Positions 2,922 through 7,865 of a stretch of DNA of 11,096 nt are shown here, one piece after another. The DNA is from a virus (taxonomy: Duplodnaviria; Heunggongvirae; Uroviricota; Caudoviricetes). The translations under genes and the position numbers were made by a program. The stretch lies in the IMG/VR virus record IMGVR_UViG_3300028374_000006. One strand, given 5' to 3'. The notes beneath the pieces were generated by a model, which was not told where the DNA came from, did no database searches, and saw nothing but the letters and a program-made list of their open reading frames with translations. Position 1 is the first letter of the stretch. Each line of letters starts with the position of its first letter.

Positions 2922-2928
2922 TAAGCCC

Positions 2929-2957
2929 TTGACACGTCCGATACGTAGTGATAGGAA
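2929..2957 (+). promoter_or_regulatory. Putative sigma70-type promoter upstream of tRNA-Ile/pyrB
   Basis: TTGACA 2929-2934, 17-bp spacer containing TG at 2949-2950, and a weak -10 TAGGAA 2952-2957 that lacks the -7 T. Confidence 0.5.
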
Positions 2958-3009
2958 TAGAGGGGTGGGGCCATTGGTTCCATCTTTAACGGACCGTAAG
3001 GGTTCGTGA

Positions 3010-3082
3010 AGGCCCGTAACTCAATTGGAAGAGTAACACCCCGATAAGGTGTAAGTTGTCGGTTCGAGTCCGACCGGGCCTA
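3010..3082 (+). tRNA. tRNA-Ile(GAT), CCA not encoded, non-canonical C33
   Basis: Acceptor AGGCCCG/CGGGCCT, D-stem ACTC/GAGT, anticodon stem ACACC/GGTGT with loop CCGATAA, T-arm GTCGG-TTCGAGT-CCGAC, discriminator A3082. Confidence 0.93.
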
Positions 3083-3114
3083 CTTTACATTTCCAACCAG
3101 ATCTCGTACCATCC

Positions 3115-3153
3115 GTCTCCGTAGCATTTCCCCAATGTACGGAGGCTTCTTTT
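3115..3153 (+). promoter_or_regulatory. Hairpin sequestering the pyrB Shine-Dalgarno, followed by a U-rich tract
   Basis: GTCTCCGTA-g-CATT-[TCCCC]-AATG-TACGGAGGC gives 13 bp (one G.U, one bulge) and contains GGAGG 3141-3145. TTCTTTT follows, then ATG 3154. Confidence 0.65.
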
Positions 3154-4116
3154 ATGTGGGACCACTTCCTTTCAGCCGAACAAATCGACCGCAAACGTCT
3201 GTGTTTACTCTTTGATAAAGTGCAGACAATGCGCATTCACCAACCTTACTTACAAGGTCGTGTTGTCGCGTGCCTTTTTTACGAGCCTTCCACCCGGACG
3301 GCCCGATCATTTGAAACAGCGGTAAAGCGCACTGGCGGCAATGTCCTGATGGTCAGTGATCTGGAATCGACGTCGGTTGCCAAGGGCGAATCTTTTGCGG
3401 ATACGATTCGTACTTTCAATCAGTACGCCGACGCAATCGTGATTCGTCACCCACGTCAAGGGGCTGCCCTTGAAGCGGCCAATGTTTCTACAGTGCCCGT
3501 GGTAAATGCGGGCGATGGGGCTAACGAGCATCCCACACAGGCACTTCTCGATGCGTACACGATAGCTGAACACCACGAACGTCTGGATGGGCTTAGAATC
3601 ACTGTGGTGGGTGATCTTAAATACGGTCGTACCGTACATTCGTTGTCGCTCCTCCTGTCCAAGTTTAATGTGGAGTTTAAGTACGTCCGCCCGGAAACGT
3701 TGAAAATGCCGTCCGGCTATCCCGAGGGCGAAACTCATACGCATCTGACGCCAGAGGTGTTGGCTGAAACCGATGTGCTTTACATGACTCGTATCCAGCG
3801 GGAACGCTTTGCTTTACGTGGTGATCCCCACCCGGAAATCTTGGTGAAGGGTTGCCACCTCACACCGGAGTTGGTGAAGCATTTGCCCGAAGAGTCTTGC
3901 ATCCTTCACCCTTTCCCACGGGTGGAGGAATTGGACCTGGCGATAGATGAGGACCCCAGAGCCTTGTATTTCAAACAGATGGCAAACGGGGTACCTATGC
4001 GTGCGGCCTTGATTAATACCCTCATACACCACGGCCAGACCCGTTCGCTTGTGGGGCATGGTTCGAAATGGTCGACTGAAGACCCGTGGGGCATCAAGGG
4101 TACGGATTCATTTTGA
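3154..4116 (+). CDS. pyrB: Aspartate carbamoyltransferase catalytic subunit
   Basis: FYEPSTRT, KGES, IVIRH, NAGDG..EHPTQALLD, GDLKYGRTVHSL, YMTRIQRER and HPFPR motifs; GGAGG SD. Confidence 0.97.
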   Translation: MWDHFLSAEQIDRKRLCLLFDKVQTMRIHQPYLQGRVVACLFYEPSTRTARSFETAVKRTGGNVLMVSDLESTSVAKGESFADTIRTFNQYADAIVIRHPRQGAALEAANVSTVPVVNAGDGANEHPTQALLDAYTIAEHHERLDGLRITVVGDLKYGRTVHSLSLLLSKFNVEFKYVRPETLKMPSGYPEGETHTHLTPEVLAETDVLYMTRIQRERFALRGDPHPEILVKGCHLTPELVKHLPEESCILHPFPRVEELDLAIDEDPRALYFKQMANGVPMRAALINTLIHHGQTRSLVGHGSKWSTEDPWGIKGTDSF

Positions 4117-4141
4117 CGGCTTACATTACGTGTGGTATAAG
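4113..4141 (+). promoter_or_regulatory. Sigma70-type promoter with extended -10
   Basis: TTGACG 4113-4118, 17-bp spacer, TG 4133-4134, TATAAG 4136-4141. The -35 overlaps the pyrB TGA. Confidence 0.8.
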
Positions 4142-4150
4142 GGCTAGGTA

Positions 4151-4186
4151 TTGATACGAAACCCTTTTGTAATGGAGGTTTAGGGA
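4151..4186 (+). promoter_or_regulatory. Conserved leader element with SD-sequestering hairpin (copy 1)
   Basis: TTGATACGA-AA-CCCT-TT-TGTAAT-GGAGGTT-TAGGGA; similar to 7091-7126. Confidence 0.45.
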
Positions 4187-4725
4187 TGGATTCATCCAAA
4201 GTCGCACTTGTGGTAGTGCTATCTGTCTTGGCTCTGTTGGGCCTTGGCTTCTTTTCGTACATCGGCACCACGAACAGTGAGGTCCGGTTGCGCAACCAAG
4301 TGGAAGCCCAGCAGCAAGTGCTGGAAAGCCACCACGACAAGATGTGGAAGATCCTGCAGCAGAAGGCTGGGGTAGCTTCCGAGTACAAAGACACCTTCGC
4401 CGAGGTTTACCCGGACCTTATTTCCGGGCGATACGACGGTGAAGGCGGCGCTAAGATGGTGCTGGCCAAGATGGTCAAAGAGGATAACCCGGATTTCGAT
4501 ACGTCTCTGTACAAAGAGCTATCACGGGCTATCGAAGCACACCGTACTTCTTTCCACCACGAACAGACCAAGCTGTTAGACCTTCACCGGGAGCATAAGG
4601 ATCTCCTACAGACGTTCCCCGGCAACACCATGTTGGCAGGTCGTGAACCAGTGGACATTACCATCATCACAAGTTCGCGGTCTAAGCAAGCAATCGAAAC
4701 CGGTGTCGGGAAAGGCACAGCGTAA
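4186..4725 (+). CDS. LemA-like membrane-anchored coiled-coil protein (last few residues possibly altered by a deletion)
   Basis: N-terminal TM helix, then N.EVRLRNQVEAQQQVLESHHDKMWKILQQKA..., E.NP.FD.SLYK.L...IE..R..F...Q..L.D. This pattern is typical of phage LemA-like proteins (recognised from memory). GGAGG SD. Confidence 0.7.
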   Translation: MDSSKVALVVVLSVLALLGLGFFSYIGTTNSEVRLRNQVEAQQQVLESHHDKMWKILQQKAGVASEYKDTFAEVYPDLISGRYDGEGGAKMVLAKMVKEDNPDFDTSLYKELSRAIEAHRTSFHHEQTKLLDLHREHKDLLQTFPGNTMLAGREPVDITIITSSRSKQAIETGVGKGTA

Positions 4726-5227
4726 ATTCCAGCTAATCAACGGGTACATGGGCCGGTCGAAGCAACTCCGGGTCTGGGTTTTGTTGTTCAAAAACCAACC
4801 CCGAGACGCGGGGCATTTGCAAGAGGCGCTGTGGATTGGTGCGAACAAAAACGAATTCGTCATTACAATCGGCGTGGATAGCCAGTACAATGTGGAATGG
4901 TCGCATGTCTTTTCGTGGACGGAAACCGAGCGCCTTAAAATCGACACGAGGTATTATGTCGAGGAACAAGAGGAGCTAGACCTTGTGGCATTAGCGGATT
5001 GGCTCAAGCCCCGGTTGCGCAAGCAATGGGAACGCCGTGAGTTTGCTGAGTTCGATTACCTCAAGGTGGAGCCGCCTACATGGGCTGTGGTCCTGATTTT
5101 CTTTTTGACGATCTTAGCGAACGTCGCCGTGTCCGCATACGTGGTAATGAACCAGTACTCAGAGTCCTACCGGTATGGTAGCGATGATTATTCACCGTGG
5201 AAAAGTAAACCTTGGGAGCGATGGTAA
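4709..5227 (+). pseudogene. 5'-truncated C-terminal part of a larger phage membrane protein
   Basis: The frame of ORF 4643..5227 encodes NG.MG..KQ..V.VL.FKNQP..AG..QE..W.G.NKNEFV..IG...W..VFSWT...W.R.EF..F.YL..EP plus a C-terminal TM helix. It overlaps the LemA-like 3' end and has no convincing start or SD. Confidence 0.55.
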
Positions 5228-5604
5228 TGAGTGACATTCAAGAAAAGCGCAAACTTCGTGGGCAAGAAGTTTCGGAATCCGCCGCCCGCATGATGAAGTC
5301 TTTTGTCGTGCTGGAGCAGAGCATCGAAACCGACCTCAAAGACCTGTTGGGTTCGGACATTACGCACGTGGCCGTCGAGATAGGTCTGGATACCGGGATG
5401 TACGCTAGCGTCTATGTGATATACGTGGCGGAAGATGAGCGTGAAAGGACCATCAACGCCTGTGACCGGGACGTAGAGGAATTGCTTACCCAATACGGGC
5501 TAGGCAACCGCCGTTCCATTTTTGAAAAGCGCACAAGCACGCTCTGGCGGTTCTATCATAAGAACGCGGACACCGACCGAGGACTACATCGTTATGGCGG
5601 GTAA
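5227..5604 (+). CDS. Hypothetical protein (125 aa)
   Basis: TAATG overlap at 5225-5229; GGGAG SD at 5214-5218. Confidence 0.75.
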   Translation: MSDIQEKRKLRGQEVSESAARMMKSFVVLEQSIETDLKDLLGSDITHVAVEIGLDTGMYASVYVIYVAEDERERTINACDRDVEELLTQYGLGNRRSIFEKRTSTLWRFYHKNADTDRGLHRYGG

Positions 5605-6106
5605 CGTAGCAGCCTATCCGGGGTCCTTCGATCCCTTTACGCTGGGGCACATGGATATCCTTCAGCGGGCGTCCAAGCTCTTTGAAACGGTGTATGTGGT
5701 GGTGGCGCACAATGCCAACAAAAGCCACCTTTTCAGCGGGGACCAGCGTCTTGAAATCGTTGAAAGGTCGGTAACACACCTCCGGGACCATTACCGAATG
5801 CCCGAAGAGGCGGACATTCGCGTTCGTTTGCACACTGGAATCACTTCCGATTTTTTGGATGAGCACAACGTGGATGTTGTGATCCGGGGCATTCGAAACG
5901 CTACCGATCTCGACCATGAAATCAAGCTGGAACAGTATCTTCGGCGCACGTCCACTGCGGAAACGGTTTACTTGACGCCGAGGACCCGGAACCTCAATAC
6001 TAGCTCGACGCTGGTACGGATGTTTTTGCAAACGGGGAAGTTCGAGGAAGCCGGGCGATACATGTCGACCGAGGCCCAGAAATACATCGTCGATACCCTA
6101 ACTTAA
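5594..6106 (+). CDS. coaD: Phosphopantetheine adenylyltransferase (170 aa)
   Basis: YPGSFDPFTLGH (TxGH nucleotidyltransferase motif), N..K..LFS..QRL, VIRGIR...D...E, SSTLVR. ATG 5594 follows GAGGA 5579-5583. Confidence 0.93.
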   Translation: MAGNVAAYPGSFDPFTLGHMDILQRASKLFETVYVVVAHNANKSHLFSGDQRLEIVERSVTHLRDHYRMPEEADIRVRLHTGITSDFLDEHNVDVVIRGIRNATDLDHEIKLEQYLRRTSTAETVYLTPRTRNLNTSSTLVRMFLQTGKFEEAGRYMSTEAQKYIVDTLT

Positions 6107-6127
6107 CAGTACGGGGTGGATATCTAA

Positions 6128-6958
6128 ATGATTTCATTACCTACCAGATTTCAGCCTTCTGTATCGTTTGGGGGCGCTGAGATACAGCGCACCGAAGATG
6201 GGCGTTGGCGCACGGAGTTCGAACATCGCGGCTCCAAGATGGAGTTGTTCGCCGATTCCATGTTCGCCCTGCGGGATACTTTGTTGGAGTTGAAAAAGAC
6301 GCAAACCCCGCTGGAAGAGTGCCTCGAAAAGATGGACGACTGGTCATACCTACGCCTTTACGAGGTCTATACGACAAGGCCAACCGAAGGTCCGTGGCAC
6401 CAGCGAAAAGACGAATGGCTTTTGCTTAACGGCTTGGTGTTTTACGGCGTCAAGCATGAAAAATGGGAAAGCACTTGGCCCGCGTCTAACCCGGAACGTT
6501 ACCCGCTTTCGCTTACGGAAAAGGGGAGCGAAGTATGCTCCAAACTGTTTTTCGAACCGAAACAAGATCTCGATTATAAAGAGAAACAAGCACTCCATGC
6601 AGACCTCCGGGGCCGCATGGTCGAAAGCATCTATTCCGCCCCTGTGGGTTACGAGAGGCCCTCTGACGTGTTTGTGGCTTTGCATTGGGGGCACAAGGTG
6701 CTCGCAATATCTGAGAGCCGTGACGGCGCTTTCAAGGCGCTTTTGCGGGACACCAAATGTGGGGAATGTGAAAACACCACGATGCGCCTTATCAAAGTTA
6801 AAAAAGATTACCGTATCCCGCCGATGGAAAAGATTCGGGTGTCGGATTATTGGGTCAAGTATTGCACAGAGCTTTTGTGGGAGAAAAAATGGGGTACTAT
6901 AGTCAACGAAGAAGGCCCGGAAGATTTGGTAGCGGTAGCGGGTAGAATTACTACTTGA
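6128..6958 (+). CDS. Hypothetical protein (276 aa)
   Basis: Long ORF filling the gap between coaD and the next promoter; purine-rich GGGGTGG upstream; no family recognised. Confidence 0.8.
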   Translation: MISLPTRFQPSVSFGGAEIQRTEDGRWRTEFEHRGSKMELFADSMFALRDTLLELKKTQTPLEECLEKMDDWSYLRLYEVYTTRPTEGPWHQRKDEWLLLNGLVFYGVKHEKWESTWPASNPERYPLSLTEKGSEVCSKLFFEPKQDLDYKEKQALHADLRGRMVESIYSAPVGYERPSDVFVALHWGHKVLAISESRDGAFKALLRDTKCGECENTTMRLIKVKKDYRIPPMEKIRVSDYWVKYCTELLWEKKWGTIVNEEGPEDLVAVAGRITT

Positions 6959-6983
6959 CGGGAATGCTTTTAGTACGTATGAT
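6955..6983 (+). promoter_or_regulatory. Sigma70-type promoter upstream of tRNA-Arg
   Basis: TTGACG 6955-6960, 17-bp spacer, TATGAT 6978-6983. The -35 overlaps the upstream TGA stop. Confidence 0.82.
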
Positions 6984-6998
6984 GTTTAGAACATATAC

Positions 6999-7075
6999 AG
7001 GCCCGTAGCTCAGTCTGGATAGAGCACGGCGCTACGAACGCCGGATAGTCGGGGGTTCGAATCCCTCCGGGCCTG
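6999..7075 (+). tRNA. tRNA-Arg(ACG), CCA not encoded
   Basis: Acceptor AGGCCCG/CGGGCCT, D-stem GCTC/GAGC with GG-A20, anticodon stem CGGCG/CGCCG with loop CTACGAA, 7-nt variable region, T-arm GGGGG-TTCGAAT-CCCTC. Confidence 0.95.
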
Positions 7076-7090
7076 CTAACCCTTAATGCT

Positions 7091-7131
7091 TTGATACGAC
7101 CACCCTAGTGTAATTTAACGTAGGGAGGTCG
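7091..7131 (+). promoter_or_regulatory. Conserved leader element with SD-sequestering hairpin (copy 2)
   Basis: TTGATACGA-CCA-CCCT-AG-TGTAAT-TTAACG-TAGGGA. CGACC-A-CCCTA (7097-7107) pairs with TAGGG-A-GGTCG (7121-7131), covering GGAGGT. Confidence 0.5.
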
Positions 7132-7133
7132 CG

Positions 7134-7466
7134 ATGAAACGCATCGGGTTGAAGCTGTTTTATTATTTGGTCGTTGTACCGGTATCGTGGTTAGGGACAG
7201 AGTGGGCACTTCGAGTGTACCACAAAACCCATGACCGCATCTGGCCGGAAAAATCGACTGAACTTATGCTCTACCGGTCGGAAGCAATTCAGACCATGAT
7301 GGGCATGGGGTATTGCCTTCAGTTGCGGGGCAATCAAATATGGGCCTTTAATTTTTCGACGGAAGATTTCCTTCTGGCGGAGCATGAGGATCCAAAGGAA
7401 CGTTGGAAACTAGCACTACGAGCTGCTCATGACCATAAAACAAACGTTCTGGAAGGTGGTGCATAA
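7134..7466 (+). CDS. Hypothetical protein (110 aa), hydrophobic N-terminal segment
   Basis: GGAGGT SD; contains EW-x7-T-x-D-x2-WP, shared with the next ORF. Confidence 0.8.
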   Translation: MKRIGLKLFYYLVVVPVSWLGTEWALRVYHKTHDRIWPEKSTELMLYRSEAIQTMMGMGYCLQLRGNQIWAFNFSTEDFLLAEHEDPKERWKLALRAAHDHKTNVLEGGA

Positions 7467-7746
7467 CGCAGTAGCGCACCCCCTCCTCGCCATCGACGAT
7501 CTTATCCGTGCGGAATGGACTGTTGATTTCCACGACTGGACGTCGGATTTAGCTTGGCCGCCCGAGGAGGGTGGTGGCTACGATCCAAACAACCTCGAAG
7601 TTCGCCTCGGTGAACATCGTGAGCACATGGATATCGCCGGTCATCTTTTGACCGACGCCGGATTGGGGGATGAGTTCAGAGCTATCCTCAAGGAATCCGA
7701 AATGAAAGTTGACGAACTATACGAAGAACGTGTAGGATCTAAGTAG
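7429..7746 (+). CDS. Hypothetical protein (105 aa)
   Basis: N-terminal W..VHN.VAHPL...FHDWT...AWP motif; overlaps the upstream ORF by 38 nt; ends 8 nt before tRNA-Val. Confidence 0.75.
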   Translation: MTIKQTFWKVVHNAVAHPLLAIDDLIRAEWTVDFHDWTSDLAWPPEEGGGYDPNNLEVRLGEHREHMDIAGHLLTDAGLGDEFRAILKESEMKVDELYEERVGSK

Positions 7747-7754
7747 CAAGTTAC

Positions 7755-7828
7755 GGGGCCGTAACTCAGTTGGTCAGAGTGCCATCCTTACAAGTTGGAA
7801 GTCGACAGTTCGAGTCTGTCCGGCCCCA
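7755..7828 (+). tRNA. tRNA-Val(TAC), CCA not encoded
   Basis: Acceptor GGGGCCG/CGGCCCC, D-stem ACTC/GAGT, anticodon stem CCATC/GTTGG (one U.U mismatch) with loop CTTACAA, T-arm GACAG-TTCGAGT-CTGTC. Confidence 0.94.
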
Positions 7829-7830
7829 TT

Positions 7831-7865
7831 AGCCCCCGGATCTTTTAAGGTCTGGGGGCTTTTCT
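7831..7865 (+). terminator. Rho-independent terminator after tRNA-Val
   Basis: 12-bp stem AGCCCCCGGATC/GGTCTGGGGGCT (two G.U pairs), loop TTTTAA, followed by TTTCT. Confidence 0.8.

Follow-up and report, generated by a model that had tools for sequence, protein, structure and literature searches.

Is the ribosome-binding site (RBS) of the first gene after a phage transfer RNA (tRNA) gene hidden in a hairpin, and is such hiding a property of single genes or of the phage as a whole? The question is raised by a stretch of DNA from an uncultivated Caudoviricetes phage (IMG/VR record IMGVR_UViG_3300028374_000006), of which we analysed 11,096 nucleotides (nt), here called the window, within the 25.8-kb metagenome contig Ga0136596_1000294 (loci L001 and L009). 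An earlier note on this DNA had described hairpins pairing the GGAGG Shine-Dalgarno (SD) sequence of three lead genes, namely pyrB, a gene it called LemA-like, and the open reading frame (ORF) beginning at 7134 (ORF7134), and had seen in them a recurring, possibly phage-wide system of translational control. All three stems can be drawn in the sequence. Those of pyrB and ORF7134 bury the SD well beyond chance expectation, while the third lies at chance level. Each of the real hairpins occupies the junction of a tRNA gene with the ORF that follows (tRNA-Ile/pyrB and tRNA-Arg/ORF7134); this placement, like the terminator-like look of the pyrB hairpin, was missed by the earlier note.

Burial was expressed as the SD opening cost, the free energy needed to make the SD single-stranded in its leader. 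For the null distribution, the SD and everything downstream were kept fixed and all sequence 5´ of the SD was dinucleotide-shuffled. In all, 81 distinct leaders were scanned; they came from L009, from its variant L011 and from a related 82-kb phage contig (L019). tRNA genes were called with ARAGORN and Rfam, protein families with Pfam (E ≤ 0.001) and PHROG, and RNA families with Rfam (E ≤ 1). The junction upstream of pyrB has the following elements.

2929–2957, + strand: promoter-like site TTGACA-17-TAGGAA, with GATACGTA in the spacer, 5´ of tRNA-Ile; read from the sequence
3010–3083, + strand: tRNA-Ile (GAT); ARAGORN, Rfam tRNA 65 bits
3084–3112, + strand: sigma70-like site TTTACA-17-TACCAT, 9/12 matches; predicted start near 3119, within the 5´ arm of the pyrB hairpin
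3115–3146, + strand: pyrB leader hairpin; the 3´ arm contains the SD GGAGG (3141–3145)
3147–3155, + strand: U-rich tract UUCUUUUAU; begins right after the pyrB stem and doubles as SD-AUG spacer
3154–4116, + strand: pyrB, aspartate carbamoyltransferase catalytic chain; Pfam OTCace_N and OTCace

The pyrB hairpin extends from G3115 to C3146, beginning 31 nt after the end of tRNA-Ile, and consists of an outer stem of 9 bp, an inner stem of 4 bp and a UCCCC loop (13 pairs, one bulge). Its minimum free energy is -16.0 kcal/mol (z = -5.0), and none of 200 shuffles folds equally well. Opening the SD costs 12.3 kcal/mol, compared with 5.7 ± 1.9 kcal/mol in shuffled leaders, and this value is reached by 17 of 5000 shuffles. 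The cost depends strongly on where the RNA starts: it is 12.1 kcal/mol for a 5´ end at 3115, 8.0 at 3119, 5.1 at 3120 and 4.1 at 3121, such that RNAs beginning at 3120 or later have to spend 4–5 instead of 12 kcal/mol. The hairpin looks like an intrinsic terminator as well, being a G+C-rich stem-loop followed by a U-tract. 9-mers with seven or more T make up 0.24% of those in the window, and one begins at 3147; UUCUUUUAU is also the most U-rich SD-AUG spacer among 22 genes. The terminator call is borderline because the hairpin is weaker than the canonical terminator after tRNA-Val (-16 vs -25.6 kcal/mol), and a simple terminator scan overlooked it owing to the bulge.

The second junction is organized as follows.

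6955–6983, + strand: sigma70-like promoter TTGACG-17-TATGAT, 5´ of tRNA-Arg; 10/12 matches
6999–7076, + strand: tRNA-Arg (ACG); ARAGORN, Rfam
7077–7151, + strand: ORF7134 leader structure; the core hairpin (7097–7131) buries the SD (7124–7128) and the outer pairing (7077–7096 with 7132–7151) buries the AUG
7134–7466, + strand: ORF7134, small conserved protein, hydrophobic at its N-terminus; 12 relatives by HMMER
7755–7828, + strand: tRNA-Val (TAC); ARAGORN, Rfam
7831–7860, + strand: canonical intrinsic terminator 3´ of tRNA-Val; 13 pairs, UUUCUAUAU tail, -25.6 kcal/mol, z = -5.5

Here, the core stem comprises 10 bp with one A·A mismatch (-17.0 kcal/mol, z = -3.6). The extended fold, which adjoins the end of tRNA-Arg at 7076, pairs the AUG too and reaches -30.7 kcal/mol (z = -4.8). 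Exposing the SD costs 14.3 kcal/mol, which 1 of 5000 shuffles attains, against 5.2 ± 2.0 kcal/mol in shuffled leaders, and the cost declines from 12.9 kcal/mol for an RNA with its 5´ end at 7097 to 5.4 at 7103 and 0.5 at 7108. This hairpin is not of the terminator type: the core stem is followed by CGAUGAAACGC with no U-tract, and the U-rich run at 7156, 4 nt past the extended stem, encodes LFYYL and has no U-rich counterpart in the related locus L023. ORF7134 gave no match in Pfam or PHROG. In the alignment of its 12 relatives (A1), obtained by an exhaustive HMMER search, 10 columns are invariant, M1 among them, and the ORF and its start are therefore real. The protein is also present on a 108.9-kb contig.

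Promoter-like sequences of the form TTGAC(A/G)-17/18-TA(G/T)GA(A/T) precede all three tRNA genes of the window, at 2929, 6955 and 7709. The first of these is absent from the list of the promoter scan since its second hexamer lacks the final T, and it is identical in L019.

The opening-cost results for pyrB and ORF7134 are stable over three window sizes and at both 10 and 37 °C. Among the 81 leaders, ORF7134 ranks first and pyrB fourth; the ranks between them, the only other extreme values, are taken by canonical terminators before doubtful starts (L009 ~17330–17365 and L019 ~17400–17440), and among genuine ribosome-binding sites ORF7134 and pyrB come first and second. The opening cost stays below 6 kcal/mol in the great majority of cases. 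Ten of them reach p ≤ 0.05 where about 4 are expected, and two of the ten are terminators before doubtful starts. Of the 12 genes in L009 with a real upstream gap, only those that follow a tRNA stand out. The comparison of SD accessibility with shuffled leaders, which the earlier note had put forward as its own check, thus returns two genuinely buried SDs among leaders that are mostly open.

Both hairpins recur in relatives. The eighteen close variants (L001–L018) have identical leaders and so provide no covariation. An independent pyrB relative is found in L020 (64% identical), the leader of which retains GUCUCCG...CGGAGAC (-12.7 kcal/mol, z = -3.6). Compared with the window, the hairpin has changed at 2 of 18 arm positions and at 6 of 14 loop positions; one of the arm changes turns a U·G pair into U-A and the other breaks a pair. 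The U-tract is retained as UUUUCUUAU, opening the SD takes 8.6 kcal/mol (a cost that 41 of 1000 shuffles attain), and the second hexamer of the promoter-like site corresponding to 3084–3112 reads TACCTT. The case for the pyrB hairpin is built on its rank, its replication in relatives and its additional terminator-like features. A Thg1-family gene (tRNA-His guanylyltransferase family) lies close to pyrB in L004/L011 (7726–8634), L019 (12698–13522) and L020 (1076–1900), in L020 directly 3´ of it.

The relatives of ORF7134 include a second lineage (L023–L026) in which the ORF is 50% identical and the order tRNA-Arg(ACG), 57-nt leader, ORF, tRNA-Val(TAC) is kept (L023 2694–3231; window 6999–7828). 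The tRNA-Arg is well conserved across the lineages, with most columns of its alignment (A3) invariant, and the L023 and window leaders are essentially unalignable, two 12-nt gaps being needed. The L023 leader folds into a hairpin of -24.1 kcal/mol (z = -3.8), in which GAUUUUCC pairs with GGGGAAAUC, placing the SD (GGGGGA) in the 3´ arm; the SD opening cost is 11.5 kcal/mol and is reached by 32 of 1000 shuffles. Conservation of a structure without its sequence in two lineages is the best single argument for function. In L024 (2880–2925), the tRNA-Arg gene is replaced except for its last ~12 nt (ctccgggccagc), with the leader hairpin and the ORF retained, which looks like recombination within the tRNA gene. 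A match to a genome contig (L028) was rejected as spurious; it covers 22 residues in a G+C-rich ORF with no tRNA near. Neither pyrB nor the ORF7134 family had relatives among the IMG/VR viral contigs, and the phage record collection yielded no DNA similar to the window. The structures, their excess over chance, the energy cost, the position after a tRNA and the persistence in relatives are direct results of computation.

With moderate confidence, we read the two structures as separate, gene-specific hairpins at tRNA-to-ORF junctions that act in cis as translation blocks. Each would pair the strong SD of the first ORF after a tRNA, and in ORF7134 the AUG as well. On RNA that carries the upstream leader, either as tRNA precursor or as read-through from the tRNA promoter, the ribosome would be unable to load, and transcription of the tRNA would consequently not drive translation of the neighbouring gene. 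Based on the established thermodynamics of initiation, exposure costs of 12–14 kcal/mol would all but abolish initiation on full-leader RNA. We infer that such a block operates in vivo, together with termination at pyrB and a means of relief. The pyrB hairpin, by virtue of its U-tract, probably also stops part of the transcription arriving from tRNA-Ile. Translation would then require RNA with a 5´ end inside the hairpin, and since the conserved proteins must still be made, a 5´-shortened RNA offers the simplest way out. For pyrB, this would most simply be a transcript from the sigma70-like site at 3084–3112, starting near 3119. For ORF7134, it could result from an internal start or from an endonuclease cut at or beyond about 7103–7108.

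Control of this type is known from phage T4. T4 genes e, soc, 49, I-TevI/II/III and segB and mobE of phage Aeh1 are described as having an RBS that is hidden in long transcripts, with translatable RNA arising from a late promoter located in the hairpin region (PMC3014915, PMC2988022). The comparison with T4 drawn by the earlier note is apt in that the SD and/or start codon is held in a stable helix on longer upstream transcripts in pyrB and ORF7134, though not in the LemA-like gene, and the two may plausibly be regarded as gene-specific examples of the same control. In T4, a promoter in the DNA of the 5´ strand of the hairpin provides the shorter, translatable RNA, and the promoter-like site of pyrB is placed likewise. 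The differences are that the candidate internal promoter of pyrB is of the host sigma70-like type rather than the T4 late type TATAAATA, that ORF7134 has no recognisable internal promoter, that the upstream element is a tRNA gene, and that the pyrB hairpin carries a terminator-type U-tract. T4 segB, situated in the tRNA gene region of T4 and hairpin-regulated, is likewise a coding ORF nested among phage tRNA genes and reportedly has its RBS sequestered by a hairpin (PMC2988022, PMC3014915). It encodes a homing endonuclease, whereas the product of ORF7134 is small and hydrophobic at its N-terminus and that of pyrB is a metabolic enzyme, and there is no sequence relationship.

Several observations weigh against a pair of dedicated translation blocks. 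Taken alone, the p-value for pyrB loses significance once it is Bonferroni-corrected for 81 leaders. For each hairpin there is a single independent relative. The pyrB of L019, which is 74% identical to that of the window, adds nothing, as the two share an identical block of ~470 nt by recent recombination. The sigma70-like sites in the window number 10 against 8.1 expected from shuffles, and because there is no excess, the promoter-like site at 3084–3112 is a lead only. No promoter-like site with at least 9/12 matches lies inside the ORF7134 hairpin, so that the internal-promoter part of the T4 comparison has a candidate at pyrB alone. In the L023 lineage, no consensus-like promoter is seen directly 5´ of tRNA-Arg, which weakens any description of the hairpins as insulation from a tRNA promoter. 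The notion of a hairpin after every tRNA was discarded: at four other tRNA-to-ORF junctions in the loci, folding is no stronger than in shuffles. Finally, the anti-SD sequence and the true temperature of the host may differ from those assumed here.

The block common to the window (about 2923–3400) and L019 (9770–10250) comprises the promoter, tRNA-Ile, the leader hairpin and the first ~250 nt of pyrB. The rest of the pyrB DNA is 55–78% identical, and a recombination breakpoint lies within pyrB.

A possible, though less probable, alternative is that the hairpins act on the RNA itself. The pyrB hairpin would then be the terminator of the tRNA-Ile unit, and the ORF7134 structure an RNase III-type processing site or a 5´-terminal protective stem left after the tRNA is cut off; the presence of the SD in the 3´ arm would be a by-product of the short spacer. 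The U-tract, which adjoins the pyrB stem without a gap and persists in L020, fits this scenario, as do the canonical terminators found after tRNA-Val and after the tRNA cluster of L009. At ORF7134, the extended fold has ~27 pairs with internal loops and starts at the first base after the tRNA, the fold in L023 starts 4 nt after the tRNA, and the ORF is sandwiched by two tRNAs, ending 4–8 nt before tRNA-Val. However, a terminator in this position would shut off pyrB, a conserved enzyme gene, as well, unless the terminator itself contained a promoter, which leads back to the nested promoter proposed above. Moreover, the core hairpin of ORF7134 has no U-tract, and the SD is specifically paired in two lineages with unrelated leader sequences.

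RNase III sites consist of about two turns of imperfect double helix that is cut by the enzyme, and processing hairpins of this kind are found in phage leaders, such as the lambda N leader and the T7 intergenic sites. The helix lengths of ~27 pairs in the window and ~20 in L023 would fit, as judged from the folds and with determinants that depend on the host. As in the classic sites, a long imperfect helix with internal loops lies between upstream RNA and an ORF, and a cut could free the start site; the helix is more often interrupted than in the classic sites, and cleavage is here a prediction from the fold. Dual function of the pyrB hairpin has parallels too. Terminators and attenuators with a 3´ arm overlapping the SD occur in the dual-acting expression platforms of riboswitches and attenuators, and the pyrB hairpin with its U-tract could similarly both stop transcription and hide the SD. 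It differs in that no ligand- or protein-sensing domain was found in the pyrB leader and no leader peptide ORF runs over the hairpin. With Rfam, the window gave the three tRNAs and otherwise chance-level matches, among them no PyrR site, thermometer or riboswitch. A pyrimidine-sensing attenuator at pyrB was rejected for lack of a PyrR match and of an SD-bearing leader ORF across the hairpin, and an RNA thermometer was rejected because the stems are far too stable, even more so at 10 °C.

One intriguing but improbable extension is that small ORFs between tRNA genes in huge, tRNA-rich phages, such as the ORF7134 family between tRNA-Arg and tRNA-Val, are freed as mini-messenger RNAs by the enzymes of tRNA processing. 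The leader hairpin, which starts immediately 3´ of the tRNA and buries the start site, would make translation of the ORF depend on how the precursor is cut, by processing-coupled activation or by protection, and would be kept by structure rather than sequence across lineages. Such release would resemble the “tRNA punctuation” of mitochondria. The last stop codon lies 4–8 nt from tRNA-Val (4 nt in the L023 lineage), and with so short a gap the ORF messenger RNA would be bounded by tRNA-processing sites.

It is unlikely that the hairpins are chance or neutral structures devoid of function. In favour of chance, the 81 leaders yielded two cases only, strict correction for multiple tests removes the significance of pyrB, and G-rich SDs readily find C-rich partners. 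On the other hand, the costs observed at ORF7134 and pyrB are rarely attained by shuffled leaders, each of the hairpins reappears in an independent relative (p = 0.03–0.04), the arms are conserved in L020 where the loop has diverged, and a rare U-tract abuts the pyrB stem exactly.

The third of the proposed stems belongs to the gene downstream of pyrB.

4159–4181, + strand: stem claimed for the LemA-like leader; at chance level
4186–4725, + strand: gene named LemA-like in the earlier note; phrog_1383, “virion structural protein”

Despite the name given to this gene, its product matches neither LemA (PF04011) nor any other Pfam family at E ≤ 0.001; its match is to phrog_1383. The stem, AAACC(C)UUU paired with GGAGGUUU, has a folding energy of -4.9 kcal/mol (z = +0.08). 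Opening its SD costs 2.1 kcal/mol compared with 2.6 ± 1.5 kcal/mol in shuffled leaders, and 548 of 1000 shuffles have an equally high cost. The cost reaches 6.5 kcal/mol only when 90 nt of upstream RNA including the end of pyrB are added (7 of 300 shuffles), and the fold is then a different, weaker structure than the stem claimed. The sequence GGAUUCAU occurs both at the end of pyrB (4104–4111) and just past the AUG of the next gene (4189–4196). The two copies can pair by G·U wobbles (-33.9 kcal/mol, z = -1.7, for 4096–4200), and this long-range fold would mask the AUG, though on read-through RNA alone.

The LemA-like and ORF7134 leaders share a motif, TTGATACGA followed after 11–12 nt by TGTAAT, which occurs once in each (4151–4173 and 7091–7114) and nowhere else in the contig. 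It is absent from the leader of a 74%-identical homolog (L021) and from that of L023. The core of TTGATACGA, GATACG, is about 3-fold over-represented in L009 (23 vs 8.3 ± 2.9) and also occurs within the spacer of the promoter-like site of tRNA-Ile (2940–2947, GATACGTA). Because of this contig-wide over-representation, TTGATACGA looks like a site on DNA and not like a shared RNA module. GATACG would be half of a candidate DNA operator, the palindrome GATACGTATC, and the motif may hint at regulated promoters in these leaders. The TGTAA common to the LemA-like, ORF7134 and L023 leaders was dismissed as not significant, with ~0.13 shared 5-mers expected by chance by our estimate.

That GGAGG lead genes share an SD-sequestering module, with internal late promoters to open it or a phage RNA-binding protein to bind it, is accordingly very improbable: the shared motif with TGTAAT, the pairing between the LemA-like start region and the end of pyrB in RNA extended upstream by 90 nt, and the 10 of 81 leaders at p ≤ 0.05 speak for it, but no plausible transcript closes the LemA-like SD (1–6.5 kcal/mol), the shared 9-mer contains the enriched, seemingly DNA-level GATACG and is missing from the L021 and L023 leaders, the pyrB and ORF7134 hairpins have no sequence in common beyond the SD, and most lead genes have ordinary open SDs. 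With the third case at chance and most of the 81 SDs open, the terms “recurring” and “phage-wide” cannot be upheld, and nothing points to a common RNA-binding protein. GGAGG itself occurs 13 times on the + strand and has an SD role in the three named sites only.

The remainder of the window offers the setting for these junctions. The + strand carries the tRNAs and every called gene but one. Pfam families were assigned to pyrB (3154–4116), a cytidylyltransferase-like protein (5594–6106) and an ADP-ribosylglycohydrolase (10593 onward), and the first 1.5 kb, which has a higher G+C content, codes for the end of a type III restriction enzyme. The first SD after the tRNA-Val terminator (GGAGA) lies outside the hairpin. 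In L009, 13 tRNA genes were found. Outside the window, this locus has a cluster of nine tRNAs with long structured spacers, in which ARAGORN calls one tRNA with a two-base “anticodon (aa)” (16723–16797). The last tRNA of the cluster is followed by two strong hairpins (17286–17365, -45 kcal/mol together), the second of which (CCCCCUCCCC/GGGGGAGGGG with a U-tract) is a terminator that has GGAGG in its 3´ arm, 16 nt before the next called start.

In conclusion, the two hairpins do not open a new class of mechanism, and a phage-wide system is not supported by the 81 leaders. If our reading is correct, a large phage with strongly transcribed tRNA genes among protein genes on the same strand separates the output of tRNA from that of the neighbouring proteins. 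The separation would be achieved by a terminator or a translation block that can be bypassed by a nested promoter or a processing cut. A principle known from T4 would then also hold in a distant, uncultivated phage and apply to pyrB, an auxiliary metabolic gene.

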